A stretch of DNA of 64,000 nt. It comes from Escherichia coli (GTDB taxonomy: Bacteria; Pseudomonadota; Gammaproteobacteria; Enterobacterales; Enterobacteriaceae). Location of the stretch: assembly GCF_044324875.1 (NCBI RefSeq), contig NZ_CP172185.1; one strand, written 5' to 3'. Made by a program: the position numbers and the translations under genes. Positions 5,432-27,400 of the stretch are shown piece by piece (positions within the stretch are counted from its first letter, which is position 1; each line of letters opens with the position of its first letter). The notes below the pieces were generated by a model. That model was not told the DNA's origin and made no database searches. It saw nothing but the letters and a program-made list of their open reading frames with translations.

Positions 5432-5461
5432 ACTAATTAATAAAACAATTAATGTGTTCTA

Positions 5462-6004: not shown

Positions 6005-6360
6005 CGTTATCATCCTGATTTTTTCGTAAATATGATAATGCCTTTAAATGACATTGGACTTAATAATAACAACAATTGTCCGCCATTTAAATCAAGCATC
6101 CTTAATCCAATAAGTGACAAATCTTTAATTTATAGATTTCATGAATATTTTCTTATTACCTGAATGAGTAATTCATTGATTCAACATCGACTGAATATCC
6201 AATAAATAAATACACGTGATACATATCCCTCAATCCTTAGTTCATTTTTAGAAAAAGATACACAAAATTTATATTTGGCATTTTCTTGTCTCTCCGACAG
6301 ACTGACCGAATTGTTATCAATGTTAACAAAAAAAAGAACAATTGGTTATAAGGAGAGAGT

Positions 6361-6936: not shown

Positions 6937-7888
6937 GATCATTAAACTGGCGCTGGCGGGATTGCTTAGCGTCTCTACACTTGCTGTTGCCGCGGAGTCT
7001 TCGCCAGAGGCGTTACGGATTGGCTATCAGAAAAGCAACATCAGTTCGGTGCTGGCGAAAAATTACCAAATGCTGGAAAAACGCTATCCGCAAACAAAAA
7101 TCTCCTGGGTGGAGTTCCCGGCTGGCCCGCAGATGCTGGAGGCACTGAACGTCGGTAGTATCGATCTGGGTAGTACGGGAGATATTCCGCCAATCTTTGC
7201 TCAGGCCGCCGGGGCTGATTTGCTGTATGTGGGTGTCGAGCCACCGAAGCCCAAAGCCGAAGTGATTCTGGTGGCAGAAAATAGCCCGATCAAAACCGTA
7301 GCCGATCTTAAAGGTCACAAAGTTGCCTTTCAGAAAGGTTCCAGTTCGCACAATCTTTTACTACGCGCACTACGCCAGGCCGGGCTTAAGTTTACCGATA
7401 TACAACCCACTTACCTGACACCCGCTGATGCCCGCGCCGCGTTCCAGCTAGGTAACGTTGACGCCTGGGCTATCTGGGATCCCTACTACTCCGCTGCATT
7501 ATTACAGGGCGGCGTGCGGGTGTTGAAAGACGGCACCGATCTCAATCAAACCGGATCGTTTTATCTGGCAGCCCGTCCGTATGCAGAAAAAAACGGCGCA
7601 GTTATTCAGGGTGTACTGGCAACCTTTAGTGAGGCCGATGCGTTAACCCGCAGCCAGCGCGAGCAAAGCATCGCCTTATTGGCAAAAACGATGGGCTTAC
7701 CGGCCCCGGTGATTGCCTCGTATCTGGATCATCGCCCTCCCACCACCATCAAACCGGTTAACGCCGAAGTTGCCGCCTTACAGCAGCAAACGGCAGATCT
7801 GTTTTATGAAAACCGTCTGGTGCCGAAAAAAGTCGATATTCGCCAGCGTATCTGGCAGCCCACTCAACTGGAAGGAAAACAATTATGA
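6929..7888 (+). CDS. ssuA: aliphatic sulfonate ABC transporter substrate-binding protein
   Basis: Start taken at [21 protein letters not shown] (signal peptide) inside listed ORF 6887..7888; 319 aa. Confidence 0.9.
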
Positions 7889-9030
7889 GTCTGAATATGT
7901 TCTGGTTTTTACCGACCCACGGTGACGGGCATTATCTGGGAACGGAAGAAGGTTCACGCCCGGTTGATCACGGTTATCTGCAACAAATTGCGCAAGCGGC
8001 GGATCGCCTGGGCTATACCGGTGTGCTGATCCCAACGGGGCGCTCCTGCGAAGATGCGTGGCTGGTTGCCGCGTCGATGATCCCGGTGACGCAACGGCTG
8101 AAGTTTCTTGTCGCCCTGCGTCCCAGCGTAACCTCACCTACCGTTGCCGCCCGCCAGGCCGCCACGCTTGACCGTCTCTCGAATGGTCGTGCGTTGTTTA
8201 ATCTGGTCACAGGCAGCGATCCACAAGAGCTGGCAGGCGACGGCGTGTTCCTTGATCATAGCGAGCGCTACGAAGCCTCGGCGGAATTTACCCAGGTCTG
8301 GCGGCGCTTATTGCTGGGGGAAACCGTCAATTTCAACGGTAAACATATTCATGTGCGCGGAGCCAAACTGCTCTTCCCGCCGATTCAACAGCCGTATCCT
8401 CCGCTTTACTTTGGCGGATCGTCAGATGTCGCCCAGGAGCTGGCGGCAGAACAAGTTGATCTCTACCTCACCTGGGGCGAACCGCCGGAACTGGTTAAAG
8501 AGAAAATCGAACAAGTGCGGGCGAAAGCTGCCGCGCATGGACGCAAAATTCGTTTCGGTATTCGTCTGCATGTGATTGTTCGTGAAACCAACGACGAAGC
8601 GTGGCAGGCCGCCGAGCGGTTAATCTCGAATCTTGATGATGAGACTATCGCCAAAGCACAAGCCGCATTCGCCCGGACGGATTCCGTAGGACAACAGCGA
8701 ATGGCGGCGCTACATAACGGCAAGCGCGACAATCTGGAGATCAGCCCCAATTTATGGGCGGGTGTTGGCTTAGTGCGCGGCGGTGCCGGGACGGCACTGG
8801 TGGGCGATGGTCCGACGGTCGCTGCGCGAATCAACGAATACGCTGCACTTGGCATCGACAGTTTTGTGCTTTCGGGCTACCCGCATCTGGAAGAAGCGTA
8901 TCGGGTTGGCGAATTGCTGTTCCCGCATCTGGATGTCGCCATCCCGGAAATTCCGAAGCCGCAGCCGCTGAATCCGCAAGGCGAAGCGGTGGCAAATGAT
9001 TTTATCCCCCGTAAAGCCGCGCAAAGCTAA
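7885..9030 (+). CDS. ssuD: FMNH2-dependent alkanesulfonate monooxygenase
   Basis: 381 aa; 4-nt overlap with ssuA stop. Confidence 0.92.
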
Positions 9031-9040
9031 GGAATAAATA

Positions 9041-9832
9041 ATGGCAACGCCAGTGAAGAAGTGGTTATTGCGCGTTGCCCCCTGGTTTTTACCGGTGGGC
9101 ATCGTGGCGGTGTGGCAACTGGCCTCCTCAGTTGGCTGGCTGTCGACGCGTATTTTGCCCTCTCCGGAAGGAGTGGTGACGGCGTTCTGGACGCTCTCCG
9201 CCAGCGGCGAATTGTGGCAGCATCTGGCGATCAGCTCCTGGCGGGCGTTGATTGGCTTTTCAATTGGCGGATCGCTGGGGTTGATTTTGGGACTGATTAG
9301 CGGGCTATCTCGCTGGGGAGAACGGCTGCTGGATACCTCCATTCAGATGTTGCGTAACGTGCCGCATCTGGCGCTGATCCCGCTGGTGATTTTGTGGTTT
9401 GGCATTGATGAATCCGCAAAAATCTTTCTGGTGGCGCTCGGCACGCTATTCCCCATTTATATCAACACCTGGCACGGCATCCGTAATATCGATCGCGGTC
9501 TGGTGGAAATGGCGCGTAGCTATGGATTATCCGGCATCCCGCTGTTTATCCATGTGATCCTGCCTGGTGCCCTGCCCTCCATTATGGTCGGCGTGCGTTT
9601 TGCGTTGGGCCTGATGTGGCTGACGCTGATTGTTGCCGAAACCATTTCTGCCAATTCCGGCATTGGTTATCTGGCGATGAATGCGCGGGAGTTTCTGCAA
9701 ACGGACGTGGTGGTTGTCGCCATTATTCTTTACGCCCTGCTCGGCAAACTTGCTGACGTCAGCGCGCAGCTGTTAGAGCGCCTCTGGTTGCGCTGGAACC
9801 CGGCTTATCATTTGAAGGAGGCCACGGTATGA
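9041..9832 (+). CDS. ssuC: aliphatic sulfonate ABC transporter permease
   Basis: 263 aa hydrophobic permease-like ORF. Confidence 0.9.
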
Positions 9833-10596
9833 ATACTGCTCGTCTGAACCAGGGCACACCATTGTTGCTCAATGCAGTAAGCAAACATTACGCGGAAAAT
9901 ATCGTCCTGAACCAACTGGATTTACATATTCCGGCTGGTCAGTTTGTGGCGGTGGTGGGCCGCAGCGGTGGTGGCAAAAGTACCCTGCTGCGCCTGCTGG
10001 CAGGTCTGGAAACGCCAACCGCTGGCGATGTGTTAGCGGGCACCACACCGCTGGCTGAAATTCAGGAAGACACGCGAATGATGTTTCAGGATGCGCGTCT
10101 GCTGCCGTGGAAATCGGTGATTGATAACGTTGGGTTAGGCCTTAAAGGCCAGTGGCGCGATGCCGCGCGTCGGGCGTTGGCTGCAGTAGGACTGGAGAAT
10201 CGCGCGGGGGAATGGCCTGCCGCACTTTCTGGCGGGCAGAAACAGCGTGTGGCGCTGGCAAGAGCGTTGATTCATCGACCGGGTTTATTATTGCTTGATG
10301 AACCGCTCGGGGCGCTGGACGCCTTAACGCGACTCGAGATGCAGGATTTGATTGTGTCACTTTGGCAGGAGCACGACTTTACCGTACTGTTGGTGACGCA
10401 TGATGTGAGCGAAGCGGTAGCAATGGCTGACCGGGTGTTGTTAATTGAAGAGGGAAAAATTGGTCTGGATTTGACGGTGGATATCCCCCGTCCGCGCCGG
10501 TTAGGGTCGGTGCGATTAGCGGAGCTGGAAGCGGAAGTGTTGCAACGGGTGATGCAGCGTGGGCACTCTGAACAACCGATTCGGCGTCATGGTTAA
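9829..10596 (+). CDS. ssuB: aliphatic sulfonate ABC transporter ATP-binding protein
   Basis: 255 aa with Walker A (GRSGGGKST) and ABC signature (LSGGQKQR). Confidence 0.92.
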
Positions 10597-10599
10597 TAT

Positions 10600-10800
10600 G
10601 CCGGATGTGGCGCACAAAACCAGCAGTTTCAACGGATTGTAGGCCTGATAAGACGCGTCAAGCGTCGCATCAGGCATTTGGGCACGGCTGCCGGATGCGG
10701 CGTGAACGCCTTATCCAGCCTACAAAACCAGCATTTTCAACGGACTTGTAGGCCTGACAAGACGCGTCAAGCGTCGCATCCGGCATTTTGGCTCAAAAGT
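10600..10800. repeat. REP/BIME cluster (two ~100-bp near-identical units with REP palindromes)
   Basis: Two copies of ...gccggatg(c/t)ggcg...ttcaacgga(c)ttgtaggcctga(t/c)aagacgcgtcaagcgtcgcatc(a/c)ggca... containing the characteristic REP palindrome, between convergent ssuB and pepN. Confidence 0.8.
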
Positions 10801-10801
10801 A

Positions 10802-13414
10802 TCAAGCCAGTGCTTTAGTTATCTTCTCGTACAGATCGCCAGAGAGATTTTCCAGCCCTTTCAACTGCTCCAGCGCCGCGCGCATTTTCTCCTGACGTTT
10901 GGCATCGTAACGCTTCAGGCGAATCAGCGGTTCAATCAGACGTGAAGCCACCTGCGGGTTACGGCTGTTGAGATCGGTTAGCATTTCCACCAGGAACTGG
11001 TAACCGCTGCCATCTTCGGCATGGAACGCTGCCGGGTTGCTGCCCGCAAACGCACCAATCAACGAACGAATACGGTTCGGGTTGCTCATGGTAAATGAGC
11101 GATGCTGCAACAGGCCACGCACCGTCTCCAGCACATTCGCCGCCGGGCTGGTGGCTTGCAGGATAAACCATTTATCCATCACCAGACCATCCTGATGCCA
11201 CTTGTCGTCGTACTCCTGCATCAGCGCGTCACGGCAAGGCAGCTGTGCAGCAACCGCCGCAGAAAGCGCTGCCAGCGCATCGGTCATATTGTTTGCTTCA
11301 TGGTATTGCTTGCTCACCAGCACGTCAGCCAGATGCGTTTCACCAAAAGCAAGGAAGCGCAGGCAGGCATTACGCAGAGTGCGTTTTGCAATATCTTCAT
11401 GCTCAACACGGTACTCGCTCTGGTAATTCGCGTTGTAAATAGCCAGTAGCTCATCCGCCAGTTCAGTCGCCAGAGTACGAGTGAGTGCTTCGCGTACTTC
11501 AGCAATAGCAATCGGGTCGATGATATCGAACAGTTCTGCCATTTCATTGACGGAAGGCAGCGTCAGGATTTCTGCCGCCAGTGCCGGATCAATCTTCTCA
11601 TCAAGCAGTACCGCGCGGAAAGCATCAGCCACATGCACCGGCAGAGACAGCGGCTGACCTTGCTGATGACGCGCGACGTTCAGCTTGATGTAGGTTGCCA
11701 GCAGGCTTTGCGCCGCATCCCAGCGGGAGAAATCATTACGCGCATGACGCATCAGGAAGGTCAGTTGCTGATCGCTCCACTTATATTCCAGTTTCACTGG
11801 CGCAGAGAATTCGCACAGCAGCGCAGGCACCGGCTGGAAGTAGACATTATCAAAGACAAAGGTCTGTTCCGCCTGGGTGACGTTCAGCACCGAATTGACC
11901 GGATGACCGCCTTTCTGCAACGGGATCACTTTGCCTTCGTTATCATACAGTTCGATGGCAAACGGAATATGCAGCGGCTGTTTTTCTGCCTGATCCGGCG
12001 TAGCAGGCGTACGCTGGCTGATGGTCAGGGTGTACTGCTCGGTTTCCGGATTATAGTCGTCTTTGACGGTCACAACCGGCGTACCGGACTGGCTGTACCA
12101 ACGGCGGAAATGAGAGAGATCGACATTTGACGCATCTTCCATTGCCTGAACAAAATCGTCGCAGGTTGCCGCGCTGCCATCATGGCGCTCGAAATAAAGC
12201 TGCATCCCTTTCTGGAAGTTTTCTTCGCCCAGCAGGGTGTGGATCATGCGAATCACTTCCGCGCCCTTCTCGTAAACGGTCAGGGTGTAGAAGTTGTTCA
12301 TCTCAATGACCATATCCGGGCGGATCGGGTGCGCCATCGGGCTGGCGTCTTCTGCAAACTGCAATCCGCGCATGGTGCGCACATTATTGATGCGGTTAAC
12401 TGCGCGGGAACCAAGGTCAGAGCTGAACTCCTGATCGCGGAAGACGGTTAAACCTTCTTTCAGGCTGAGCTGGAACCAGTCGCGGCAAGTCACACGGTTA
12501 CCGGTCCAGTTATGGAAATATTCATGGCCGATAACACGCTCAATATCGAGGTAATCTTTATCGGTGGCGGTGTCGGTACGGGCCAGCACATATTTGGAGT
12601 TAAAGATATTCAGACCTTTATTCTCCATTGCGCCCATATTGAAGAAATCCACCGCGACGATCATATAGATGTCGAGGTCATACTCCAGGCCGAAGCGTTC
12701 TTCATCCCATTTCATGGAGTTTTTCAGCGAGGTCATCGCCCACGGCGCACGATCAAGGTTGCCGCGATCGACGTACAGCTCCAGCGCAACTTCGCGACCA
12801 GAACGCGTGGTGAAGGTGTCGCGCAGCACGTCGAAGTCGCCTGCCACCAGCGCAAACAGGTAGCACGGTTTCGGGAACGGGTCCTGCCACTGTACCCAGT
12901 GACGTCCGTTTTCCAGTTCGCCTTGCGCAACGCGGTTACCGTTGGAAAGCAGGAAGGGATATTTGGTTTTATCGGCAATAATTTTGGTGGTAAAACGCGC
13001 CAGCACGTCCGGGCGGTCAAGATAATACGTAATATGGCGGAAACCTTCGGCTTCACACTGAGTGCAAAGCGCATCGCCTGACTGATAAAGCCCTTCCAGC
13101 GCGGTATTCGTCGCCGGGCTAATTTCATTAACGATCTTAAGCGTAAAACGCTCCGGCAAATTACTGATGACCAGTGCGCCCTCTTCTTCTTTCCAGGCGG
13201 TCCACGGCTCATCATTAATATGAACAGAAACCAGTTTAAGATCTTCGCCATCAAGACGAAGCGGAGCATCTGATGCACCATGACGGACAGCCTGGCTGAC
13301 CGCGGTAACGACCGTCTTTTGCGCGTCCAGGTCAAAGGTCAAGTCAATATCAGTAATCTGGTAATCCGGCGCACGATAATCGTGACGGTATTTGGCTTGT
13401 GGCTGTTGAGTCAT
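10802..13414 (-). CDS. pepN: aminopeptidase N
   Basis: 870 aa; zinc-binding HEYFHNWTGN and downstream E motif present. Confidence 0.95.
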   Translation of the reverse strand: MTQQPQAKYRHDYRAPDYQITDIDLTFDLDAQKTVVTAVSQAVRHGASDAPLRLDGEDLKLVSVHINDEPWTAWKEEEGALVISNLPERFTLKIVNEISPATNTALEGLYQSGDALCTQCEAEGFRHITYYLDRPDVLARFTTKIIADKTKYPFLLSNGNRVAQGELENGRHWVQWQDPFPKPCYLFALVAGDFDVLRDTFTTRSGREVALELYVDRGNLDRAPWAMTSLKNSMKWDEERFGLEYDLDIYMIVAVDFFNMGAMENKGLNIFNSKYVLARTDTATDKDYLDIERVIGHEYFHNWTGNRVTCRDWFQLSLKEGLTVFRDQEFSSDLGSRAVNRINNVRTMRGLQFAEDASPMAHPIRPDMVIEMNNFYTLTVYEKGAEVIRMIHTLLGEENFQKGMQLYFERHDGSAATCDDFVQAMEDASNVDLSHFRRWYSQSGTPVVTVKDDYNPETEQYTLTISQRTPATPDQAEKQPLHIPFAIELYDNEGKVIPLQKGGHPVNSVLNVTQAEQTFVFDNVYFQPVPALLCEFSAPVKLEYKWSDQQLTFLMRHARNDFSRWDAAQSLLATYIKLNVARHQQGQPLSLPVHVADAFRAVLLDEKIDPALAAEILTLPSVNEMAELFDIIDPIAIAEVREALTRTLATELADELLAIYNANYQSEYRVEHEDIAKRTLRNACLRFLAFGETHLADVLVSKQYHEANNMTDALAALSAAVAAQLPCRDALMQEYDDKWHQDGLVMDKWFILQATSPAANVLETVRGLLQHRSFTMSNPNRIRSLIGAFAGSNPAAFHAEDGSGYQFLVEMLTDLNSRNPQVASRLIEPLIRLKRYDAKRQEKMRAALEQLKGLENLSGDLYEKITKALA

Positions 13415-13632
13415 AAATAACCTTTAGCATCTTTTATAGAGTCTGGTGTTCAGTCTATTCCTGTTGCGTAAATCGCGCTATGCAGAATCTTCATCTTTTC
13501 AGGTACAAACGCCTTTATTGCTACATTTTTATAACATACACCGCGTAATGCCATCGACCAGAAAGGTGGCATATGGTGTGATCGGGGTTCAATAAATTGC
13601 GAAACAAGGTATACTCCAGCAGTTCCTGAAGA

Positions 13633-13650
13633 TGTTTATTGTACTAAACG
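13633..13650 (+). promoter_or_regulatory. candidate NadR operator (TGTTTA-N6-TAAACg palindrome) upstream of pncB
   Basis: tgtttattgtactaaacg lies about 30 bp upstream of the pncB ATG; NadR is known to repress pncB; consensus is recalled from memory. Confidence 0.35.
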
Positions 13651-13679
13651 CTCCTGTACGAGGACGCTACTGCGCACCT

Positions 13680-14882
13680 ATGACACAATTCGCTTCTCCT
13701 GTTCTGCACTCGTTGCTGGATACAGATGCTTATAAGTTGCATATGCAGCAAGCCGTGTTTCATCACTATTACGATGTGCATGTCGCGGCGGAGTTTCGTT
13801 GCCGAGGTGACGATCTGCTGGGTATTTATGCCGATGCTATTCGTGAACAGGTTCAGGCGATGCAGCACCTGCGCCTGCAGGATGATGAATATCAATGGCT
13901 CTCAGCCCTGCCTTTCTTTAAGGCCGACTATCTTAACTGGCTACGCGAGTTCCGCTTTAACCCGGAACAAGTCACCGTGTCCAACGATAATGGCAAGCTG
14001 GATATTCGTTTAAGCGGCCCGTGGCGTGAAGTCATCCTCTGGGAAGTTCCTTTGCTGGCGGTTATCAGTGAAATGGTACATCGCTATCGCTCACCGCAGG
14101 CCGACGTTGCGCAAGCCCTCGACACGCTGGAAAGCAAATTAGCCGATTTCTCGGCATTAACCGCCGGTCTTGATATGTCGCGCTTCCATCTGATGGATTT
14201 TGGCACCCGCCGACGTTTTTCTCGTGAAGTACAAGAAACCATCGTGAAACGTCTGCAACAGGAATCCTGGTTCGTGGGCACCAGCAACTACGATCTGGCG
14301 CGTCGGCTTTCCCTCACGCCAATGGGAACACAAGCACACGAATGGTTCCAGGCGCATCAGCAAATCAGTCCGGATCTTGCCAACAGCCAGCGAGCTGCAC
14401 TTGCTGCCTGGCTGGAAGAATATCCCGACCAACTTGGCATTGCATTAACCGACTGCATCACTATGGATGCTTTCCTGCGTGATTTCGGTGTCGAGTTCGC
14501 CAGTCGCTATCAGGGCCTGCGTCATGACTCCGGCGACCCGGTTGAATGGGGTGAAAAAGCCATTGCACATTATGAGAAGCTGGGAATTGATCCACAGAGT
14601 AAAACGCTGGTTTTCTCTGACAATCTGGATTTACGCAAAGCGGTTGAGCTATACCGCCACTTCTCTTCCCGCGTGCAATTAAGTTTTGGTATTGGGACTC
14701 GCCTGACCTGCGATATCCCCCAGGTAAAACCCCTGAATATTGTCATTAAGTTGGTAGAGTGTAACGGTAAACCGGTGGCGAAACTTTCTGACAGCCCTGG
14801 CAAAACTATCTGCCATGATAAAGCGTTTGTTCGGGCGCTGCGCAAAGCGTTCGACCTTCCGCATATTAAAAAAGCCAGTTAA
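13680..14882 (+). CDS. pncB: nicotinate phosphoribosyltransferase
   Basis: Start taken at [25 protein letters not shown] inside listed ORF 13632..14882; 400 aa. Confidence 0.92.
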
Positions 14883-15050
14883 TATCATCAGGGAGCTAAT
14901 CGGCTCCCTTTTTTTACCTTTAATTCCGAAATCTTTCGCTGCATTTGCGAATTCTGCTTGTCTGATTGCAGATGCCAGGTAACATAGGTATCCCCCCATT
15001 TACGGGTGGACAAGTGTTTATTTTTTCCGACTATTAACAGAGAGAATATT

Positions 15051-16451
15051 ATGAGCGTTGTGCCTGTAGCCGACGTACTCCAGGGCCGCGTAGCCGTTGA
15101 CAGCGAAGTCACCGTGCGCGGATGGGTACGTACCCGCCGAGATTCAAAAGCTGGCATCTCCTTCCTCGCCGTTTATGACGGTTCCTGCTTTGATCCTGTA
15201 CAGGCTGTCATCAATAATTCTCTGCCCAATTACAATGAAGACGTCTTGCGTCTGACCACCGGCTGCTCGGTCATTGTGACGGGTAAAGTCGTGGCGTCGC
15301 CGGGCCAGGGGCAACAATTTGAAATTCAGGCCAGCAAGGTTGAAGTTGCTGGTTGGGTTGAAGATCCAGACACTTACCCGATGGCGGCAAAACGCCACAG
15401 CATTGAGTATCTGCGTGAAGTCGCTCACCTGCGTCCGCGCACAAACCTGATTGGTGCCGTCGCGCGCGTTCGCCATACGCTGGCGCAGGCGCTGCATCGC
15501 TTCTTTAACGAGCAGGGATTCTTCTGGGTTTCAACGCCACTGATTACTGCGTCTGATACCGAAGGGGCTGGCGAAATGTTCCGCGTTTCTACGCTGGATC
15601 TGGAAAACCTGCCGCGTAACGATCAGGGCAAAGTGGATTTCGACAAAGACTTCTTTGGTAAAGAGTCTTTCCTGACCGTATCTGGCCAGTTGAACGGCGA
15701 AACCTACGCTTGCGCATTGTCCAAAATTTATACCTTCGGCCCGACTTTCCGTGCTGAAAACTCCAACACCAGCCGTCACCTGGCGGAATTCTGGATGCTG
15801 GAGCCGGAAGTGGCGTTTGCTAACCTGAACGATATTGCGGGTCTGGCTGAAGCCATGCTGAAATATGTCTTCAAAGCGGTTCTCGAAGAACGCGCTGACG
15901 ACATGAAATTCTTCGCTGAACGCGTAGATAAAGATGCCGTTTCACGTCTGGAACGCTTTATTGAGGCCGATTTCGCGCAGGTGGATTACACCGACGCAGT
16001 GACCATTCTCGAAAACTGCGGCAGGAAGTTTGAAAACCCGGTTTACTGGGGCGTCGATCTCTCTTCTGAGCATGAGCGTTATCTGGCGGAAGAACACTTT
16101 AAAGCACCGGTAGTGGTTAAAAACTATCCGAAAGATATTAAAGCGTTCTATATGCGCCTTAACGAAGACGGTAAAACCGTTGCGGCTATGGACGTTCTGG
16201 CTCCGGGCATCGGTGAGATCATTGGTGGCTCCCAGCGTGAAGAGCGTCTGGACGTGCTGGACGAGCGTATGCTGGAAATGGGCCTGAACAAAGAAGATTA
16301 CTGGTGGTATCGCGATCTGCGTCGCTACGGTACTGTTCCGCATTCCGGTTTCGGTCTTGGTTTTGAACGCCTGATTGCTTACGTAACAGGCGTGCAAAAC
16401 GTGCGTGATGTGATTCCGTTCCCACGTACTCCACGTAACGCCAGCTTCTAA
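15051..16451 (+). CDS. asnS: asparagine--tRNA ligase
   Basis: Start taken at [13 protein letters not shown] inside listed ORF; 466 aa; class II aaRS C-terminus ([15 protein letters not shown]). Confidence 0.95.
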
Positions 16452-16464
16452 TTTAGCGTCTTCA

Positions 16465-16493
16465 AGAGCCAGCGCCCGCTGGCTCTTTTTTTA
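16465..16493 (+). terminator. rho-independent terminator of asnS
   Basis: Hairpin gagccagcgcccgctggctc followed by a T7 run. Confidence 0.7.
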
Positions 16494-16603
16494 TCCTTTC
16501 TGTCAAGTTATCTGTTTGTTAAGTCAAGCAATCTATTTGCAACCCCACCATAACGATCATCCTGTTACGGAATATTACACTGCAACATTTGCGCACAAAA
16601 AAT

Positions 16604-16634
16604 AATCCGCATTCTTATTGCGGATTAGTTTTTT
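16604..16634 (+). terminator. second hairpin plus T-run in asnS-ompF intergenic, immediately abutting IS200 left end
   Basis: aatccgca-ttcttat-tgcggatt (8-bp stem) followed by agtttttt; the IS200-shared sequence starts right after. Confidence 0.5.
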
Positions 16635-17346
16635 GTGCACAGAAAACCCCCAGCTAGGCTGGGGGTTCCGGAAAGCTTTCAGCTTTGAGCCAGTTATTAA
16701 AACCCCTTTTGATTTGTTAAAACACCTTGCGGTCTGGCAACTGCAAGTGTCAAACAAGAAATCAAAAGGGGGTCCCAATGGGGAACGAAAAGAGCTTAGC
16801 GCACACCCGATGGAACTGTAAATATCACATAGTATTTGCGCCAAAATACCGAAGACAGGTGTTCTACAGAGAGAAGCGTAGAGCAATAGGCTGTATTTTG
16901 AGAAAGCTGTGTGAGTGGAAAAGTGTACGGATTCTGGAAGCTGAATGCTGTGCAGATCATATCCATATGCTTGTGGAGATCCCGCCCAAAATGAGCGTAT
17001 CAGGCTTTATGGGATATCTGAAAGGGAAAAGCAGTCTGATGCTTTACGAGCAGTTTGGTGATTTGAAATTCAAATACAGGAACAGGGAGTTCTGGTGCAG
17101 AGGGTATTACGTCGATACGGTGGGTAAGAACACGGCGAAGATACAGGATTACATAAAGCACCAGCTTGAAGAGGATAAAATGGGAGAGCAGTTATCGATT
17201 CCCTATCCGGGCAGCCCGTTTACGGGCCGTAAGTAACGAAGTTGGATGCAAATGTCAGATCGTGTGCGCCTGTTAGGGCGCGGCTGGTAAGAGAGCCTTA
17301 TAGGCGCATTTGAAAAACCTCCGGCTATGCCGGAGGATATTTATTC
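16634..17346 (+). mobile_element. IS200 insertion sequence, copy 1 (IS200/IS605 family, about 713 bp)
   Basis: Limits set by where the sequence stops matching the second copy (23755..24469, inverted); contains tnpA, a left-end hairpin cccccagc-tag-gctggggg and an RBS-sequestering stem; ends are approximate to within 3 bp. Confidence 0.85.
16778..17236 (+). CDS. tnpA: IS200 transposase TnpA (HUH Y1 transposase)
   Basis: 152 aa from MGNEKSLAHTRWNCKYHIVFAPKYRR...; the HxH motif (ADHIHMLVEI) is visible and the protein closely resembles Salmonella IS200 TnpA as recalled from memory. Confidence 0.9.
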   Translation: MGNEKSLAHTRWNCKYHIVFAPKYRRQVFYREKRRAIGCILRKLCEWKSVRILEAECCADHIHMLVEIPPKMSVSGFMGYLKGKSSLMLYEQFGDLKFKYRNREFWCRGYYVDTVGKNTAKIQDYIKHQLEEDKMGEQLSIPYPGSPFTGRK

Positions 17347-17559
17347 TTAGCTGATAGCACAATTTTCATACTATTTTTTGGCGTTCTGGATGTCTGAACG
17401 AGGATTTAGTGCCAGGTCGATAAAGTTTCCATCAGAAACAAAATTTCCGTTTAGTTAATTTAAATATAATGAAATCATATAAATAGATAAATATTGCTGT
17501 AAATATCATCACGCTTCTATGGAAATATGACGGTGTTCACAAAGTTCCTTAAATTTTAC

Positions 17560-17764
17560 TTTTGGTTACATATTTTTTCTTTTTGAAACCAAACCTTTAT
17601 CTTTGTAGCACTTTCACGGTAGCGAAACGTTAGTTTGAATGGAAAGATGCCTGCAGACACATAAAGACACCAAACTCTCATCAATAGTTCCGTAAATTTT
17701 TATTGACAGAACTTATTGACGGCAGTGGCAGGTGTCATAAAAAAAACCATGAGGGTAATAAATA
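17560..17764 (+). promoter_or_regulatory. ompF promoter with OmpR-binding region and 5' UTR (micF target)
   Basis: Sequence ttttacttttggttacatattttttctttttgaaaccaaa...ttgacagaacttattgacggcagtggcaggtgtcataaaaaaaacc matches my recollection of the K-12 ompF promoter/OmpR F1-F3 region. Confidence 0.55.
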
Positions 17765-18853
17765 ATGATGAAGCGCAATATTCTGGCAGTGATCGTCCCT
17801 GCTCTGTTAGTAGCAGGTACTGCAAACGCTGCAGAAATCTATAACAAAGATGGCAACAAAGTAGATCTGTACGGTAAAGCTGTCGGTCTGCATTATTTCT
17901 CCAAGGGTAACGGTGAAAACAGTTACGGTGGCAATGGTGACATGACCTATGCCCGTCTTGGTTTTAAAGGGGAAACTCAAATCAATTCCGATCTGACCGG
18001 TTATGGTCAGTGGGAATATAACTTCCAGGGTAACAACTCTGAAGGCGCTGACGCTCAAACTGGTAACAAAACGCGTCTGGCATTCGCGGGTCTTAAATAC
18101 GCTGACGTTGGTTCTTTCGATTACGGCCGTAACTACGGTGTGGTTTATGATGCACTGGGTTACACCGATATGCTGCCAGAATTTGGTGGTGATACTGCAT
18201 ACAGCGATGACTTCTTCGTTGGTCGTGTTGGCGGCGTTGCTACCTATCGTAACTCCAACTTCTTTGGTCTGGTTGATGGCCTGAACTTCGCTGTTCAGTA
18301 CCTGGGTAAAAATGAGCGTGACACTGCACGCCGCTCTAACGGCGACGGTGTTGGCGGTTCTATCAGCTACGAATACGAAGGCTTTGGTATCGTTGGTGCT
18401 TATGGCGCCGCTGACCGTACCAACCTGCAAGAAGCTCAACCTCTTGGCAACGGTAAAAAAGCTGAACAGTGGGCTACTGGTCTGAAGTATGACGCGAACA
18501 ACATCTACCTGGCAGCGAACTACGGTGAAACCCGTAACGCTACGCCGATCACTAATAAATTTACAAACATCAGCGGCTTCGCCAACAAAACGCAAGACGT
18601 TCTGTTAGTTGCGCAATACCAGTTCGATTTCGGTCTGCGTCCGTCCATCGCTTACACCAAATCTAAAGCGAAAGACGTAGAAGGTATCGGTGATGTTGAT
18701 CTGGTGAACTACTTTGAAGTGGGAGCAACCTACTACTTCAACAAAAACATGTCCACCTATGTTGACTACATCATCAACCAGATCGATTCTGACAACAAAC
18801 TGGGCGTAGGTTCTGACGACACCGTTGCTGTGGGTATCGTTTACCAGTTCTAA
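17765..18853 (+). CDS. ompF: outer membrane porin F
   Basis: 362 aa, [22 protein letters not shown] signal peptide, C-terminal ...VGIVYQF. Confidence 0.95.
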
Positions 18854-18878
18854 TAGCACACCTCTTTGTTAAATGCCG

Positions 18879-18910
18879 AAAAAACAGGACTTTGGTCCTG
18901 TTTTTTTTAT
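18879..18910 (+). terminator. rho-independent terminator of ompF
   Basis: Hairpin aacaggactttggtcctgtt followed by a T8 run. Confidence 0.75.
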
Positions 18911-19037
18911 GCCTTCCAGAGCAATCTCACGTCTTGCAAAAACAGCCTGCGTTTTCATCAGTAATAGTTGGAATTTTGTAAATCTCCCGTTACCCTGATA
19001 GCGGACTTCCCTTCTGTAACCATAATGGAACCTCGTC

Positions 19038-20228
19038 ATGTTTGAGAACATTACCGCCGCTCCTGCCGACCCGATTCTGGGCCTGGCCGATCTGTTTCGT
19101 GCCGATGAACGTCCCGGCAAAATTAACCTCGGGATTGGTGTCTATAAAGATGAGACGGGCAAAACCCCGGTACTGACCAGTGTGAAAAAGGCTGAACAGT
19201 ATCTGCTCGAAAATGAAACCACCAAAAATTACCTCGGCATTGACGGCATCCCTGAATTTGGTCGCTGCACTCAGGAACTGCTGTTTGGTAAAGGTAGCGC
19301 CCTGATCAATGACAAACGTGCTCGCACGGCACAGACTCCGGGTGGCACTGGCGCACTACGCGTGGCTGCCGATTTCCTGGCAAAAAATACCAGCGTTAAG
19401 CGTGTGTGGGTGAGCAACCCAAGCTGGCCGAACCATAAGAGCGTCTTTAACTCTGCAGGTCTGGAAGTTCGTGAATACGCTTATTATGATGCGGAAAATC
19501 ACACCCTTGACTTCGATGCACTGATTAACAGCCTGAACGAAGCTCAGGCTGGCGACGTAGTGCTGTTCCATGGCTGCTGCCATAACCCAACCGGTATCGA
19601 CCCTACGCTGGAACAATGGCAGACACTGGCACAACTTTCCGTTGAGAAAGGCTGGTTACCGCTGTTTGACTTCGCTTACCAGGGTTTTGCCCGTGGTCTG
19701 GAAGAAGATGCTGAAGGACTGCGCGCTTTCGCGGCTATGCATAAAGAGCTGATTGTTGCCAGTTCCTACTCTAAAAACTTTGGCCTGTACAACGAGCGTG
19801 TTGGCGCTTGTACTCTGGTTGCTGCCGACAGTGAAACCGTTGATCGCGCATTCAGCCAAATGAAAGCGGCGATTCGCGCTAACTACTCTAACCCACCAGC
19901 ACACGGCGCTTCTGTTGTTGCCACCATCCTGAGCAACGATGCATTACGTGCGATTTGGGAACAAGAGCTGACTGATATGCGCCAGCGTATTCAGCGTATG
20001 CGTCAGTTGTTCGTCAATACGCTGCAGGAAAAAGGCGCAAACCGCGACTTCAGCTTTATCATCAAACAGAACGGCATGTTCTCCTTCAGTGGTCTGACAA
20101 AAGAACAAGTGCTGCGTCTGCGCGAAGAGTTTGGCGTGTATGCTGTTGCTTCTGGTCGTGTGAACGTAGCCGGGATGACACCAGATAACATGGCTCCGCT
20201 GTGCGAAGCGATTGTGGCAGTGCTGTAA
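19038..20228 (+). CDS. aspC: aspartate aminotransferase
   Basis: 396 aa; PLP lysine motif [14 protein letters not shown]. Confidence 0.95.
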
Positions 20229-20243
20229 GCGTTAAAAACAATG

Positions 20244-20272
20244 AAGCCCGCTTAAAAAGCGGGCTTTTTTAT
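20244..20272. terminator. bidirectional terminator between convergent aspC and ycbL
   Basis: Hairpin aagcccgcttaaaaagcgggctt flanked by A-run and T-run. Confidence 0.7.
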
Positions 20273-20278
20273 GCGCCT

Positions 20279-20926
20279 TTACCAGACGGGCATTTCGTCT
20301 TGCAGGAAGGGATTATGCAGGCGCTCATAACCAAGTGTGGATAATGGTCCGTGACCCGGAATAAATGTCACGTCATCCCCCAGTGGCAGCAATTTATCTT
20401 TGATTGAAGAAATCAGTTGATTATGATCGCCACGCGGGAAGTCACTGCGCCCTACTCCACCTTTGAAAATAACATCGCCAGAAATCAGCAGCTTTGCCCG
20501 ATCATCAAAAAATACGACATGACCCGGCGTATGCCCAGGGCAATGTAACACCTGTAAAGCCACATTCCCTATGCTGATGGTATCGCCTTCGTTCAGCCAA
20601 CGATCTGGCGTCAGCGGCTGGCACTCTTCCAGACCAAACATACGACTTTGCGCAGGCAAGCCTTGCAGCCAGAACTCATCTTCTTTTTCCGGGCCAAAAA
20701 CCGGCACGCCGTAATGTTGCGCCAGTTCCGCCGCTGCGCCAACGTGGTCCAGATGACCATGCGTCAGCAGGATCTGCATCAGTGTCAGGCCGCTGGCATC
20801 AACTTCCTGTTTGATTTTTTCCGCATCGCCGCCAGGATCGACCAGTGCGGCCAGTCGGGTTTGTTCACACCAGATCAATGAACAGTTCTGGGAGAATGCG
20901 GTGACCGGAATAATACGATAGTTCAT
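20279..20926 (-). CDS. ycbL: metallo-beta-lactamase fold hydrolase (glyoxalase II-like)
   Basis: 215 aa with THGHLDHVG metal-binding motif. Confidence 0.88.
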
Positions 20927-20952
20927 ACTGCCCCTGTTTCGTTAAGCGATTG

Positions 20953-21501
20953 CTACCAGTGCCGTGCTGGCCCGGTATCAATATGCACAAAGTTACTACG
21001 TGGGTAATATCCTACACCACCTGCGCGCATAGATAACGCGGCTTTGCGAATATTGCTTAACGCGATACCTTCAATATGGAAATCCATCGCCTGCCCTTTC
21101 GTGTGATAGCTTTTCTTCGCTACTCCACGGCTGCGGGCGCGTAGTTCATTGTTGGTATCAATGGAACGATAACCGGAAATGAGTTGCACCGGTTTGCGGG
21201 TGCCTAACAACCCTTGCAGGCGATACAACTGGTCGAATAATCCTGGGTCGATGGACTTTATTTTGTTCGCGCGGTAATCGCGGAAAAAATGGTTAAGTTT
21301 TGCCAATTCTTCCTGAATATAGCCTCTGCCATCGAAAAACTCCGCTTTGATTGACTCTCCGGTATGAAGATTATTGAGTGTCAAAATGCGCGGGCGTGGG
21401 GTAGAGAGTGTTGCAAACGCAGGGGTCGGCAGGATGGCGGCACCGAGTGCAACGCCACCAAGCGCCAGCAGTTTGCGGCGATTAGCGTCGAATTTGTCCA
21501 T
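20953..21501 (-). CDS. mepK: peptidoglycan LD-endopeptidase MepK (YcbK; Tat signal)
   Basis: Start taken at MDKFDANRRKLLALGGVALGAA (twin-arginine-like) inside listed ORF 20953..21510; 182 aa. Confidence 0.85.
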   Translation of the reverse strand: MDKFDANRRKLLALGGVALGAAILPTPAFATLSTPRPRILTLNNLHTGESIKAEFFDGRGYIQEELAKLNHFFRDYRANKIKSIDPGLFDQLYRLQGLLGTRKPVQLISGYRSIDTNNELRARSRGVAKKSYHTKGQAMDFHIEGIALSNIRKAALSMRAGGVGYYPRSNFVHIDTGPARHW

Positions 21502-21681
21502 GATAATCAAGTCTACAGGTCAATGTTATCGTTTATATGCACTTCTGGCGCACAAGAGGCACCTTAACCGTCAGTAAAGCTGACGTCAAGATGACTCAAC
21601 CCCAGCAGTGACGGGGGCTGCAGAGAATCGCCCCCGATCATGCTAATTATTACGACAACTGATTTCCCCGAACTGCTTCAT

Positions 21682-23529
21682 TTACCTGATTAATTGTTCC
21701 GCTTTCGATACGATTTGCGAGCTGGATCGCGCAGGCAGATCATAATTGTAAATATCTGTACGATACTGGGTACGACCATCTGCACCAACAAAGGCAGTCA
21801 GGTAGTAGAGATTCACCGGAATCGACTGCCGAATATTGACGTAACGCGTATCGCCCTGCTTCAGCGCATCAGAAATACGTTTGTCATTCCATCCTGCATC
21901 CTGCAACAGCATATTCGCCAGATCAGAAGCTTTATTCACTCGTACACAGCCTGAGCTCAATGCGCGTGTATCACGCTTGAACAGATTGTGGTTCGGCGTG
22001 TCATGCAAATAAATGGCCTCTGAACTCGGCATATTGAATTTATAGCGCCCCAGCGAGTTCCGTGGGCCTGGAGCCTGCTGGAAGCGAAACGGTAAATTCG
22101 AGGCCGTGATTGTAGACCAGTCAACCTGCCATGGGTCAATCGCTTCTCTGCTGTTCCAGCCGCGCATCACCGTATAGCCATGGCTTTCGAGATATCCCGG
22201 ATCGTTGCGCACTTTCGGCAGAATATCTTTGCGTGCCAGAGTTGGTGGTACGTTCCACGGCGGGTTTACCACTACGTTGTTAAGTGCACTGCTCATCATC
22301 GGCGTTTTGCGATCGGGGCGACCGACAATGACTCGCGAATCCAGCACCTGATTGCCGTTCTGATAGTAGACCAGCGAATAGGCCGGAATGTTAACCATGA
22401 TCCCGGTAGAAAGCTCTGTTGGCAGCAAGCGCAATCGCTGGATGTTGAGTGCCAACACGCCAGCACGCTGGGCGGGCGTTACGTTTAACCAGTCACGCGT
22501 TGCCGGGCCAATAGCGCCATCTGCTCCCAATCCTTGCCATGCCTGAAAACGTTTAACGGCTTCCACCAGTTCATTATCGTAGGCGGCACGAACGGCAGGC
22601 GCAGGTTTACTACGAGACGTCGTTTGCTTGTCCATCGGCTTAGTTTCTGCTGTTTCAACAGTAACAGCGGATGGGCTGACTACCGTGTCAGTTGGCGTGT
22701 CATCGCCAGGTAGAGTAATTTTCGGCCCCCCGTCCAACATGCCTGTGCGTTGCAATATTTCGCGCAACGCCGGTACGTCGTTACTCCACTGCCCTGGGCG
22801 CAACGTTGCTTTACCGGTCAGTTGAGGCCACGGTTTGGTGTCACTGAGTAAGGCCAGTAACGATTCATGCATCGCCGCATATTGCGGATGCTGCGGTGCC
22901 AGTCCTGCAACAAACGTCGGCAATTGACCTTTATCCAGCGCCAGCTGCCATTGGTTAATCACCGAAAGCGGCGGCGTTGCAAGCGCATAAGGTTTACTGC
23001 TATATAGCCAGCGAGTGCCTTTGACCGGAATATTTGCAATGAAATGGAGATAGCCCATCATCGCATCAGAGAGCACGACGTCGCGTGCCATCCCGTTAAC
23101 ACCAGGATCGGTCAGTAACTCTACCCATTTATTAAACTGCGGCTGGAAACCGGCAATCGCCACCTCGGCCAGCTGTTGCTGGAAGGCTTTAACAGCATCA
23201 CGGTTTTCCCACATGGGTTGCATATCGCGTGCGGCATACAACAGTTGAAGCTGGTTAAGATAAACCGGCTTGTAACCTGCGGGTAATTGAGATTCGATTT
23301 GCGTGCGGGCTTTTTCTGCCGCACCTTCAGGCAATGGCTGGATCCCCGCCATTATTGCCGTGGCTTGCGCCTGCGGCAGTGCCTCGCCCTGTTCACTGAC
23401 AGCCACCGGGCTGTCGCCAGGGATTACTTCAGGCTCATCGGCCTGCGCATTGAACAGTGGAGCGAATGTTACGGCCAGGCACAAACTGATTGCCGACAGC
23501 CGACGACCACACATCATATTAAGCAACAT
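21682..23529 (-). CDS. ldtD: L,D-transpeptidase LdtD (YcbB)
   Basis: 615 aa with signal peptide and YkuD-type catalytic region (HDTPNHNLF...SSGCVRV). Confidence 0.9.
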
Positions 23530-23754
23530 CCCTTGCCCCCTGTTTTTATCATACTCTGAATAGCCAGGCTGTTATTTTACGACTTACCTGTACAACGCCA
23601 ATACTCACGAAAGTATGACGAGCAAGCCTGTTACTCATCAGGCTTATCTTCAGTATATAAACGCCGATACGTTTTTACATAACCTAATGTAAAGAAGTTT
23701 AAAGAAAAGCGCGCCGTAATGTGCCACTTTTTTAGTGCAGAAACGGAGTTTTCG

Positions 23755-24469
23755 GAATAAATATCCTCCGGCATAGCCGGAGGTTTTTCAAATGCGCCTA
23801 TAAGGCTCTCTTACCAGCCGCGCCCTAACAGGCGCACACGATCTGACATTTGCATCCAACTTCGTTACTTACGGCCCGTAAACGGGCTGCCCGGATAGGG
23901 AATCGATAACTGCTCTCCCATTTTATCCTCTTCAAGCTGGTGCTTTATGTAATCCTGTATCTTCGCCGTGTTCTTACCCACCGTATCGACGTAATACCCT
24001 CTGCACCAGAACTCCCTGTTCCTGTATTTGAATTTCAAATCACCAAACTGCTCGTAAAGCATCAGACTGCTTTTCCCTTTCAGATATCCCATAAAGCCTG
24101 ATACGCTCATTTTGGGCGGGATCTCCACAAGCATATGGATATGATCTGCACAGCATTCAGCTTCCAGAATCCGTACACTTTTCCACTCACACAGCTTTCT
24201 CAAAATACAGCCTATTGCTCTACGCTTCTCTCTGTAGAACACCTGTCTTCGGTATTTTGGCGCAAATACTATGTGATATTTACAGTTCCATCGGGTGTGC
24301 GCTAAGCTCTTTTCGTTCCCCATTGGGACCCCCTTTTGATTTCTTGTTTGACACTTGCAGTTGCCAGACCGCAAGGTGTTTTAACAAATCAAAAGGGGTT
24401 TTAATAACTGGCTCAAAGCTGAAAGCTTTCCGGAACCCCCAGCCTAGCTGGGGGTTTTCTGTGCACAAA
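23755..24469 (-). mobile_element. IS200 insertion sequence, copy 2 (inverted relative to copy 1)
   Basis: Reverse complement matches copy 1 over the full element including tnpA (identical 169-aa ORF translation); ends set by loss of identity. Confidence 0.85.
23865..24323 (-). CDS. tnpA: IS200 transposase TnpA
   Basis: ORF translation identical to the copy-1 ORF; 152 aa from MGNEKSLAHT... Confidence 0.9.
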   Translation of the reverse strand: MGNEKSLAHTRWNCKYHIVFAPKYRRQVFYREKRRAIGCILRKLCEWKSVRILEAECCADHIHMLVEIPPKMSVSGFMGYLKGKSSLMLYEQFGDLKFKYRNREFWCRGYYVDTVGKNTAKIQDYIKHQLEEDKMGEQLSIPYPGSPFTGRK

Positions 24470-24492
24470 GAAAAGGCGGCATTGCTGCCGCC
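24470..24492 (-). terminator. rho-independent terminator of mukB, abutting IS200 copy 2 left end
   Basis: Hairpin ggcggcagcaatgccgcc followed on the minus strand by ttttcttt, 5 nt after the mukB stop. Confidence 0.65.
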
Positions 24493-24498
24493 TTCATT

Positions 24499-27400
24499 TT
24501 AACTCGCTTGGGAAGGCACTTCGTCACTTCCAGGAAGCGTTTCAGGGAGTTGCGGCGCAAATCCTCGCAGGCCGACGACGTGAACGTGTTCGGTATTCTG
24601 GAAGACTTTACGCACCAGTTTATAGGTGGTGCCTTTTTCCGGACTGATATTTTCCGGCGCTGCGATGATGAGCTGCATTTGCAAACGTTCACACAATTCA
24701 AACAGCGTGGCGATAGAACGAGCATCCAGTCGCGCTGCTTCATCGAGGAACAGCAGGCGGCAAGGAGAGATATCTTTACCGCGCAGGCGGCGAGATTCAT
24801 CTTCCCAGCTTTGTACCACCATCACCAGAATCGACATACCGGTACCAATCGCCTCACCGGTCGACAATGCACCAGACTCTGCGCGCAACCAGCCATCAGA
24901 ACCACGGTTAACCTCAACTTCCATTTCCAGATAGTTGCGGTAATCCAGCAGTTCTTCGCCAATGGTCTGCGGCGTGCGCTGCCCCATATCAATCTGCGGA
25001 TTAAGACGCTGATACAATTTCGCCAGCGCTTCCGAGAAGGTCAGACGGTTGCTGTTAAACAGATCCTGATGCTGCTCATGCTGTTCAGAGAGCACATCCA
25101 GCAGCATGGCGTGCGTTTCACGCACGTTCACGTTGAGGCGCACGCTGTTCACCTGACCAAACGATACGTTCTGCAACCCCTGGTTGAGCATACGGATACG
25201 GTTCTGCTCGCGCTGAATGGTTTTGCGAATGATGTTCGCCACGCTGCGGGAACTGATCGCCAGTTTCTGTTCGCGGGAGGTTAATTCTTCGGTCAGACGG
25301 CTAAGTTCGATCTCCATCTGTTCGATAGCTTCCACCGGATCATCGGTACGAATAATATCCTGACGAATACGTTCACGCAGATGCTGATAAACCGCCACGA
25401 AGAACTGAATTTTACGCTCCGGACGTTTCGGATCTTCCGACATGCGCAGCACGTCGCGCAGATGTTCGTTATCCGCCACCGCCAGACGCAGCGCACCTAA
25501 CGCCTTATCCGACATAGAGCGCAAATCATCAGCGGAGAGATAAGCCAGCTCACGACGGTGTAAGCGACGCTCAACGCCGTTATCTTTCACCATGCGCATG
25601 ACTGCACACCAGCCCGCTTTCGCGGTCACTACCTGCTCGCGCATCTCAAAGTAATCCCGCTCCAGCTTGCGCAGTTTGCGGGTCAGGTTGTCCATCTCTG
25701 CTTCGCAGAAGGTAAGCGCTTTTTCCAGTTGATTGCGGCGTGAACGGTTATTGCTCAGTTGCGCGTGCAACTCGTCACGGCGAATACGCGCCCGCTCTTC
25801 TGCCCCGCTATCAGCTCGCACGCCGATATCCTGCAATTCACGTTGCAGATCATTGAGTAGCTCTTTTTTGGTGTCGTAAGAACTTTTCAGCGAAGCCAGC
25901 ACCTGGTTGTACTGACTCAACTGCGCTGCGTGTCCGCGCAACGCTTCACGCGCGCGGGTACGCTCCGCTTCCGCCTGTTCCAGACGTTCACGCAGTTTTT
26001 CGTTGAGATCGCTGTTACCGCTAAGCATTTCTGCCGAGTCAGAGTAGCTAAAGTGCGCACGACGTTGCACCACTTCCGTCAGGGCAAACGCCTGCTGACG
26101 GGCATCGCGCTGCATCTGCTGAGAGTACGCGTAATCTTCTTTTAACTGTTCGAACTGTTCCGGGTCACTCTGCAATACCGAAACGATCGGTTCCAGTTTC
26201 GCCAGTTGATTACCGAACTGCTGAACAAAACGCGCGGCTTCCTGGGCTTCATCCAGACGTTCGCGGATTTCATCGACGCGATCCGCCAGGCTGTCATCAG
26301 CCAACAAGTTGAGACGCGGCAGAATGCGGTTCAGCGCCGTAACACCCTCTTTCGCCTGCTCAAACTGAATACGCTGCTGCTGGTTATCATTTTCATGATT
26401 ACTCAACGCCCGCTCCAGTTCGACGCGACGGCTGTTCAGTTGACGGATTTCTGCTTCCGGGTCAGACTCAAACGCCACCGCCAGATGACTACCTATAAAG
26501 CGGCTGAATGCCTGATGCAGACGCTGGGTTTTCTGTACATCAAAGGAGAGCGTGGCGAAGCGTTCGGAAAGCACTTCACGCTCGGCATGGAGGCTTTCAA
26601 TACGGCTTTCACGCGCAGCACGACCAAACAGCGGCACTTCCGGGAAACGTGAATAACGCCACTGACGATCGGCGATTTTCACCACTACCGCTTTTTCCAG
26701 CTCATCAACGCTGAACACGCTGTCATCGAATGACTGCGGATCCCCTTCGATCAGATAGAGATCTTCCGGGCAATCGGTCAAGCCTTCCAGGTGCTCGGTT
26801 ACCTGTGACAGATCTGGCACCACGATGGCGTGGCGTGACGGGCCATACAGTGCCGAGAAGTACGGCGCATCTTCCAGACTCACGTCGTCATAAATTTCGG
26901 ACAGCAGCACGCCGCCAAAACGCTCCGCCAGCGCATTCAAACGCTGGTCTTCAGAACCACCTGGCTGGCTTAAACGTTCGATCTCTTCATCGACGGCGTT
27001 TTTGCGCGCGCCTACTTCATCGCGTTCAACAATGGCTTCGCGCTCACGCTCCAGCAACTGTTGCAGATATTCGGTGACATCCTGGCTAGAGGAGAACTCT
27101 TCGCCGCACTGTTCGCTCAACTGGTTGAGGCTGTTTTGCGCAGCCAGCCAAACCGGCGCACGCTGCATCAAACTCTGAATGCGAGACTGCAGCTGTTCCT
27201 GTTCCTGGCGCAGAGCCATGCGCTCTTCACGGGCGTTAGACACGCTATCGGAAAGAGAGGCAATGCGTGCTTCCAGCTCCTGATGCAGAGCTTCCAGTTC
27301 ATCAATATCAAAATTCTTGCCCTGACGTTTGCAGAAATCTGCCAGCAGGCGTTCGGCTTCTTGCTGCTCGCGCAGACGCTGTTCCAGTTCGCTTAAGCGC

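Follow-up and report, generated by a model that had tools for sequence, protein, structure and literature searches.

Two identical, inverted IS200C copies around the ompF-ldtD segment of an Escherichia coli chromosome, a probable by-product of insertion behind transcription terminators

The 64,000-nucleotide stretch of Escherichia coli DNA analyzed here (contig NZ_CP172185.1 of RefSeq assembly GCF_044324875.1; referred to as the window) contains two copies of the insertion sequence (IS) IS200C, located between asnS and ompF (copy 1; 16635–17345, + strand, a strain-specific insertion) and between ldtD and mukB (copy 2; 23756–24466, – strand). Both are very probably genuine insertions of this known element, each with its left end directly behind the T-run of a terminator, and their mutual arrangement would then follow from the choice of target. 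The copies are identical, inverted with respect to each other, and bracket the genes ompF, aspC, gloC, mepK, and ldtD, which retain the order found in K-12. We regard the pair as a rare but unremarkable outcome of terminator-directed insertion; inversion of the bracketed segment is plausible, but unsupported.

A repeat search of positions 15500–25500 yielded a single inverted pair, with arms of 718 nt (16629–17346 and 23755–24472) and a spacing of 6408 nt. Base-by-base comparison of 16632–17346 with the reverse complement of 23755–24469 gave 715 identical positions out of 715, the first mismatch on the outer flank being 16631 versus 24470. These results agree with a first-pass annotation of the window, which had described two identical, inverted IS200 copies at coordinates that proved correct to within 1–3 nt. 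A third IS200C copy is not present in the 64 kb of the window.

The boundaries of the element were deduced from empty sites in K-12 and strain GMF065, which delimit a 711-bp sequence extending from GTGCAC to ATATTTATT, with an ambiguity of 2 nt (T) at the boundaries. The empty site corresponding to copy 1 reads ...GCGGATTAGTTTTTT/CTTAGCTGATAGC... (the slash marks the insertion point; unoccupied form in GMF065 and K-12, GGATTAGTTTTTT/CTTAGC), as compared to ...GTTTTTT/GTGCACAG...GATATTTATT/CTTAGC... in the window. For copy 2, the empty site of K-12, ...GCCGCCTTTTCTTTTT/CCGAAAAC..., is represented in the window by ...GCCGCCTTTTCTTT/GTGCACAG...ATATTTATT/CCGAAAAC.... Insertion did not generate a target-site duplication; comparison of occupied with empty sites, for the two loci and for five further strains, shows contiguous flanks. 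Terminal inverted repeats are likewise absent, the termini GTGCAC... and ...TTTATT not being inverted repeats of each other.

The only gene of the element, tnpA, codes for a 152-amino-acid Y1 (HUH) transposase. The same open reading frame occupies 16778–17236 (+) in copy 1 and 23865–24323 (–) in copy 2, so that both genes read inward, as the first-pass annotation had stated. TnpA scored 145.9 bits against the NCBIfam equivalog model NF033573 (cutoff, 55) and matched the Pfam family Y1_Tnp (PF01797) with an E-value of 1.9e-37; it differs from WP_000526135.1 by one residue. It aligns with the solved structures 2ec2, 2a6m, 2vhg, and 2xm3, which include the TnpA proteins of ISHp608 and ISDra2, and the HIH motif as well as the tyrosine of the C-terminal YI motif are conserved. 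The left-end hairpin of copy 1 (16645–16667; folding free energy, dG, –11.7), together with the stem-loop of the tnpA 5′ untranslated region, forms a match to the Rfam family STnc490 (RF01405) at 16645–16768 (+); the corresponding match of copy 2 is located at 24333–24456 (–). In both copies the covariance model was matched over its full length on the tnpA-sense strand, with 146.4 bits versus a gathering score of 56. The right end of copy 1 (17318–17345, +) consists of a GC-rich hairpin, CCTCCGGCTATGCCGGAGG (17318–17336; dG –10.0, z-score –3.5), and the ATATTTATT tail.

At least 30 RefSeq genomes of E. coli contain copies which are annotated as “IS200/IS605-like element IS200C” and match the 715-nt block with 100% identity. 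The element thus is IS200C, a member of the IS200 group of the IS200/IS605 family, which specifies the earlier designation as IS200; the element is known already, novelty being confined to the location of copy 1. Two relatives, Salmonella IS200 and Yersinia pestis IS1541, share with IS200C the architecture and the 23-nt left-end hairpin, and their left ends likewise follow a hairpin and T-run; the STnc490/art200 region also occurs in both (PMC4513863). The terminal bases are GTGCACAG in IS200C of the window, but GTGCCCAG in IS1541, and a length of 707 bp is given for Salmonella IS200, as compared to 711 bp for IS200C under the boundary convention used here. IS200 is considered nearly dormant, since a weak promoter, a terminator at the left end, mRNA structure, the antisense RNA art200, and Hfq keep the transposase level low (PMC4513863).

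Four terminators of the region provide the context of the insertions. The rho-independent terminator of asnS (16464–16492, +; hairpin and T7, dG –10.8, z-score –5.4) is unoccupied in the window; in strains E300010 and MEW, it serves as the insertion point of IS200C. It is followed by a second, bidirectional terminator-like hairpin with a T6 run (hairpin 2; 16603–16634, +; dG –12.5, z-score –6.0), which is the target of copy 1, the left end of the IS starting right after the T-run. Copy 2 abuts the bidirectional terminator of mukB (24467–24495, –; hairpin and TTTTCTTT, dG –11.8, z-score –3.8). The fourth is the terminator of ompF (18879–18908, +; hairpin and T8, dG –11.8, z-score –7.3). At five insertion points around these terminators, observed in different strains, the left end of IS200C abuts a hairpin with T-run. 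Occupied points are the asnS terminator (E300010 and MEW), hairpin 2 (the window strain, P31_YH1_02.21, and 98205), and the mukB terminator (the window strain and loci L001–L003); by inference from the deletions described below, the ompF terminator is a further one. In GCA_024766655.1, IS200C (L128, 12111–12821, –) has struck the mukB terminator on its other face, immediately behind the stop codon of mukB, and is oriented opposite to copy 2. This insertion is an independent strike on the same mukB hairpin.

To describe target choice beyond this region, loci containing the exact 23-nt left-end hairpin were sampled across species, using one genome per species, which resulted in 118 distinct left flanks from, among others, Yersinia pestis (IS1541), Vibrio ruber, Mailhella, Bacillota, and other metagenome-assembled genomes. 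A strict hairpin with a T-run ending at the IS was found in 84 of the 118 flanks, as compared to 0.9% of 20,000 positions drawn at random from these loci. Among ten further E. coli contexts of the exact TnpA of the window, nine conform to the same pattern, while the tenth has a 9-nt loop, which is outside the strict definition. In most of these contexts, the left end of the IS is preceded, at a distance of about 40 nt, by the end of a co-directional gene. Enrichment of sequences resembling terminators upstream of IS200/IS605 elements has also been described in a preprint. The rule is formulated here at the level of a hairpin plus T-run on the same strand.

The hairpin on the asnS side (+) and the terminator of mukB (–) converge on the ompF-ldtD segment; IS200C copies using them therefore are necessarily inverted, with their tnpA genes pointing inward. 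Copy 2 would have landed with its left end directly behind the T-run of the mukB terminator, on the same strand, and copy 1 in the same manner behind the second hairpin downstream of asnS. In all likelihood, the conspicuous arrangement of the two copies is a by-product of this target choice and does not constitute a functional unit. By itself, a known IS in a strain-specific pair is of little consequence, apart from a minor possible effect on the regulation of ompF. The locus nevertheless provides a base-resolved illustration of IS200-group elements landing directly behind intrinsic terminators, a habit which fixes the orientation of the element relative to neighboring genes and keeps it transcriptionally silent.

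Site occupancy was scored in 5426 complete RefSeq genomes of E. coli, using queries composed of flank, IS, and flank. Full-length IS200C is present in 2063 of these genomes, at up to 35 places per genome. The intergenic site between ldtD and mukB is occupied in 97 genomes, while an asnS flank joined to IS200C occurs in only five, none of which matches the exact insertion of the window with ompF intact. In E300010 and MEW, IS200C is located 143 bp to the left of copy 1 of the window, directly after the T7 run of the asnS terminator, and in P31_YH1_02.21, 98205, and OZ121091 it occupies hairpin 2 with an offset of about 3 nt, ompF being absent. The asnS-ompF region thus has been struck by IS200C in at least three lineages. 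The first-pass annotation had raised the question whether both copies are lineage-specific; this holds for copy 1, which is strain- or lineage-specific, but not for the site of copy 2 with its 97 occurrences. It had also regarded two identical copies at such a distance as uncommon, given that IS200 rarely transposes. Double occupancy indeed is rare, since, apart from the window strain, IS200C in both intergenic regions was found only in E300010. Identity alone, however, is weak evidence, as 38% of the complete genomes contain full-length IS200C, and the window allele recurs with 100% identity in many copies at unrelated loci. The pair of E300010 (L001, 2362–3072 and 9624–10334), located at the asnS and mukB terminators, is likewise inverted and internally identical, and the segment between its copies is not inverted.

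The window strain is diverged by at least 1% from all 5426 complete genomes (best identities, 99.0–99.1%; 97.7% over positions 1–16000). Its LdtD, OmpF, and PepN proteins are common alleles, whereas MukB and ElfC are lineage-specific. The exact MukB sequence of the window was retrieved from about 205 assembly blocks, almost all of them on contigs of 20–50 kb; the strain thus belongs to a sampled lineage for which the collection lacks a closed genome. Over 14.7 kb, the window matches a draft contig of GCA_040716805.1 with 99.993% identity; the contig ends 239 nt inside copy 2. Since this contig of the same lineage breaks within the element, it provides independent support for the presence of copy 2. 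Contigs encoding MukB or ElfC of the window break at IS200 or at repetitive extragenic palindromic (REP) repeats, and the junction on the asnS side therefore is not readable from sister assemblies.

When nine IS200C copies were compared, the alleles varied at 14 positions. The two copies of the window are identical, and so are the two of E300010, which differ from the window pair at 7 positions, while the DNA between the copies diverges by 0.7% from one strain to the other. Most simply, this would be explained by recent copying, in each of the lineages, of a resident IS200C allele into the asnS-ompF region. Judging from the 100% identity, copy 1 of the window presumably is a recent descendant of a sequence-identical IS200C of the same genome, unless the copies have been homogenized. 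The copy on the mukB side is a plausible donor, but since the window allele is common at unrelated loci, the sequences do not discriminate between the neighbor 6.4 kb away and another copy.

The plus strand of the window shows a negative GC skew, as expected for the reverse complement of the right replichore of K-12. Elements of the IS200/IS605 family move as single strands in a replication-coupled “peel and paste” mechanism which favors the lagging-strand template (PMC5371812). The tnpA-sense strand of copy 2 accordingly would be on the lagging-strand template, i.e., in the favored orientation, provided that IS200C behaves like IS608.

Several points weigh against the account of two genuine, terminator-directed insertions. 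By the same reasoning, the active strand of copy 1 would be on the leading-strand template and thus in the less favored orientation. The insertions of E300010 and MEW would also be on the leading-strand template, and a suitable hairpin with T-run, as these cases suggest, may override the strand preference. The junctions at the mukB site vary among strains (T3/IS/CCG, T3/IS/TTCCG, and T5/IS/CCG); the site may have been struck more than once, or the T-run may have slipped, which makes copy 2 uncertain as the ancestral one. The copy 1 junction is absent from the 5426 complete genomes, and its right junction gave no match in the metagenome contigs of the Joint Genome Institute. Moreover, if repeats of the source assembly were filled with a consensus, the perfect identity of the copies could be partly technical.

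These latter points touch on the first-pass annotation's own caveat of an assembly artefact. A repeat contig that was reused or misplaced would then have given rise to the second copy or to the perfect identity. Such an origin would agree with a copy 1 junction that is found nowhere else, with draft assemblies of the lineage breaking at IS200, and with consensus filling, which would force the copies to be identical. However, both junctions of copy 1 are base-exact with respect to the empty site, without any lost or duplicated flank, and conform to a canonical IS200 target, which a misplaced contig would not reproduce. Besides, other complete genomes carry independent insertions a few bases away and at the neighboring terminator. 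We therefore consider an artefact very improbable.

The bracketed segment comprises ompF (17765–18853, +; intact, common allele), aspC (19038–20228, +), gloC (formerly ycbL; 20279–20926, –), mepK (20953–21501, –), and ldtD (21682–23529, –). Copy 2 is situated 226 bp upstream of the ldtD start codon, a position which is tolerated, as it is occupied in 97 genomes. The first-pass annotation had proposed that the IS pair is a substrate for RecA-dependent inversion, and had noted from gene orientation that no inversion has taken place in this assembly. The latter observation is correct, and the former idea is mechanistically sound: inverted IS copies that recombine flip the DNA between them, an event that is invisible to short reads (PMC5009759), and perfect inverted repeats of 711 bp are present at a distance of 6.4 kb. 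An inversion should be viable, since neither copy interrupts a gene and the promoters are part of the segment itself, the IS lying upstream at distances of about 308 bp (ompF start site) and 226 bp (ldtD). Homologous recombination between the two copies thus could possibly invert the 6.4-kb segment. An invertible cassette that actually flips ompF-ldtD and maintains a population mixed for two isomers, in contrast, appears unlikely. Not a single inverted isomer was detected in 5426 genomes; in this collection, an asnS flank with IS200C but without an adjacent ompF flank was only found in the three genomes in which ompF is deleted. The window and E300010, despite its analogous identical pair, both show the K-12 orientation, and a site-specific recombinase is not encoded by the segment. 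A programmed, site-specific invertible switch was rejected, since the segment contains only ompF, aspC, gloC, mepK, and ldtD, the repeats are entire IS elements, and an alternative orientation is lacking in the 5426 genomes. In IS1- and IS5-mediated rearrangements of E. coli mutation-accumulation lines, inverted copies likewise represent potential inversion substrates, while recombination of direct copies removes the DNA between them, a single copy remaining (PMC5009759); the ompF-deleted strains P31_YH1_02.21 and 98205 fit the latter pattern. In contrast to those lines, no rearrangement has occurred in the window, where inversion is hypothetical. Identical IS copies flanking a block of genes are also reminiscent of a composite transposon that would mobilize ompF-ldtD. 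Transposition of IS200/IS605 elements, however, requires that the same strand carry both a left end and a right end (PMC5371812), and inverted copies do not provide the order left end, cargo, right end on either strand. Moreover, each of the 5425 genomes that gave a match has the segment at its conserved place in the chromosome. A composite transposon was rejected on the anatomy of the ends and has next to no probability.

A different role of copy 1 might be sought in the regulation of ompF. The OmpR sites F1-F2-F3 of the ompF promoter are located at 17555–17617 (+), as assigned from established knowledge and PMC1489923. Transcription presumably starts at about position 17655, 110 nt before the ATG codon at 17765. 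The additional OmpR site F4 was reportedly placed at –380 to –351 by Huang, Schieberl and Igo in 1994. Its putative position in the window, as computed, is 16564–16593 (GTTACGGAATATTACACTGCAACATTTGCG; no strand assigned), which without the IS would be about 260 bp upstream of F1. F4 is a weak OmpR site 260 bp upstream of F1-F3, which represses ompF by looping at high osmolarity (PMC3050692; PMC543474). The right boundary of copy 1 is 209 bp upstream of F1, and on the far side of the IS, 42 bp separate its end from the sequence at the F4 position. It differs from that of K-12 by two bases (ATTACACTGCAACATTTGCG in the window, 16564–16600, versus ATTACATTGCAACATTTACG in K-12). Since P31_YH1_02.21 and 98205 have the same variant, the difference reflects natural variation and is not linked to the IS. 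Copy 1 stretches the distance between F4 and F1, otherwise about 260 bp, to about 970 bp, and thereby might weaken repression at high osmolarity.

Copy 1 as a selected regulatory insertion, which relieves high-osmolarity repression of ompF or otherwise alters porin expression, seems rather improbable all the same. The IS does separate the F4 position from F1-F3, F4 does act by looping (PMC3050692), and IS200C has entered the asnS-ompF region in at least three lineages. This recurrence, however, is accounted for by the two suitable terminators that the region offers; DNA loops can span about 1 kb, the end hairpins of IS200 insulate the element transcriptionally (PMC4513863), and the insertions of E300010 and MEW are upstream of F4 and leave the loop intact. 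Quite doubtful, too, is a more comprehensive scenario, in which copy 1 uncouples ompF from high-osmolarity repression and may, together with copy 2, form an invertible ompF-ldtD segment, strikes of IS200C at terminators being a recurrent way of porin remodeling with deletion of ompF as the end point. Whatever its physiological effect, a natural allele with F4 about 0.7 kb farther from the ompF promoter offers a ready test of the looping model.

Loss of ompF was observed in three clinical genomes, namely P31_YH1_02.21 (L004, 10405–11115), 98205 (L005, 10405–11115), and OZ121091, which lack ompF and its promoter and have a single IS200C in their place. The left junction is at hairpin 2 (...TTTTTTCTTT/GTGCAC), while the right junction is located in the T-run of the ompF terminator (...TTTATT/TTATACCTTCC). 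Since these junctions match the product expected of recombination between direct copies, following the rule described in PMC5009759, ompF apparently was lost by recombination between two direct IS200C copies, one behind each of the two terminators. A two-copy intermediate, with IS200C behind the ompF terminator and ompF intact, was found in none of the 5426 genomes, and the deletion model therefore is based on the geometry of the junctions. The terminators around ompF thus emerge as recurrent targets of IS200C, and loss of the porin is relevant to the permeability for antibiotics. In GCA_054047545.1 (L146, 1099–2964), ompF was not called in the 1.9-kb gap between aspC and asnS, and the gene may be disrupted.

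Some minor observations concern the IS200 group in general. The identical 23-nt hairpin also occurs in metagenome-assembled genomes assigned to distant phyla, including Bacillota, Desulfovibrionaceae (Mailhella), Saccharibacteria, Elusimicrobia, and Oxalobacter, which reflects either wide horizontal spread or contamination during binning. Head-to-tail tandems of IS1541, in which the left end of one element directly follows the right end of the other, were observed at loci L074 and L076 (two hairpin matches at a spacing of 710 bp), L073, and L120 (Yersinia pestis NCTC5923). The right-end hairpin with its ATATTTATT tail resembles the preferred target, which may explain these tandem dimers. In GCA_900149875.1 (LT903847.1; L155, L156, and L159), a gene coding for a 457-amino-acid Tn5-like DDE transposase is located in or adjoining IS200C at three loci; at two of them it is inserted between the left end and tnpA, suggesting that another IS targets the hairpins of IS200.

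Outside the bracketed region, a cluster of palindromic sequences of the REP/bacterial interspersed mosaic element type is present at 10600–10790 of the window, between ssuB and pepN. The cluster explains the many scattered matches of positions 1–16000 in other genomes, and short-read contigs coding for the exact ElfC of the window end there. In many other strains, an IS3-family (IS1397-like) element resides at this spot.

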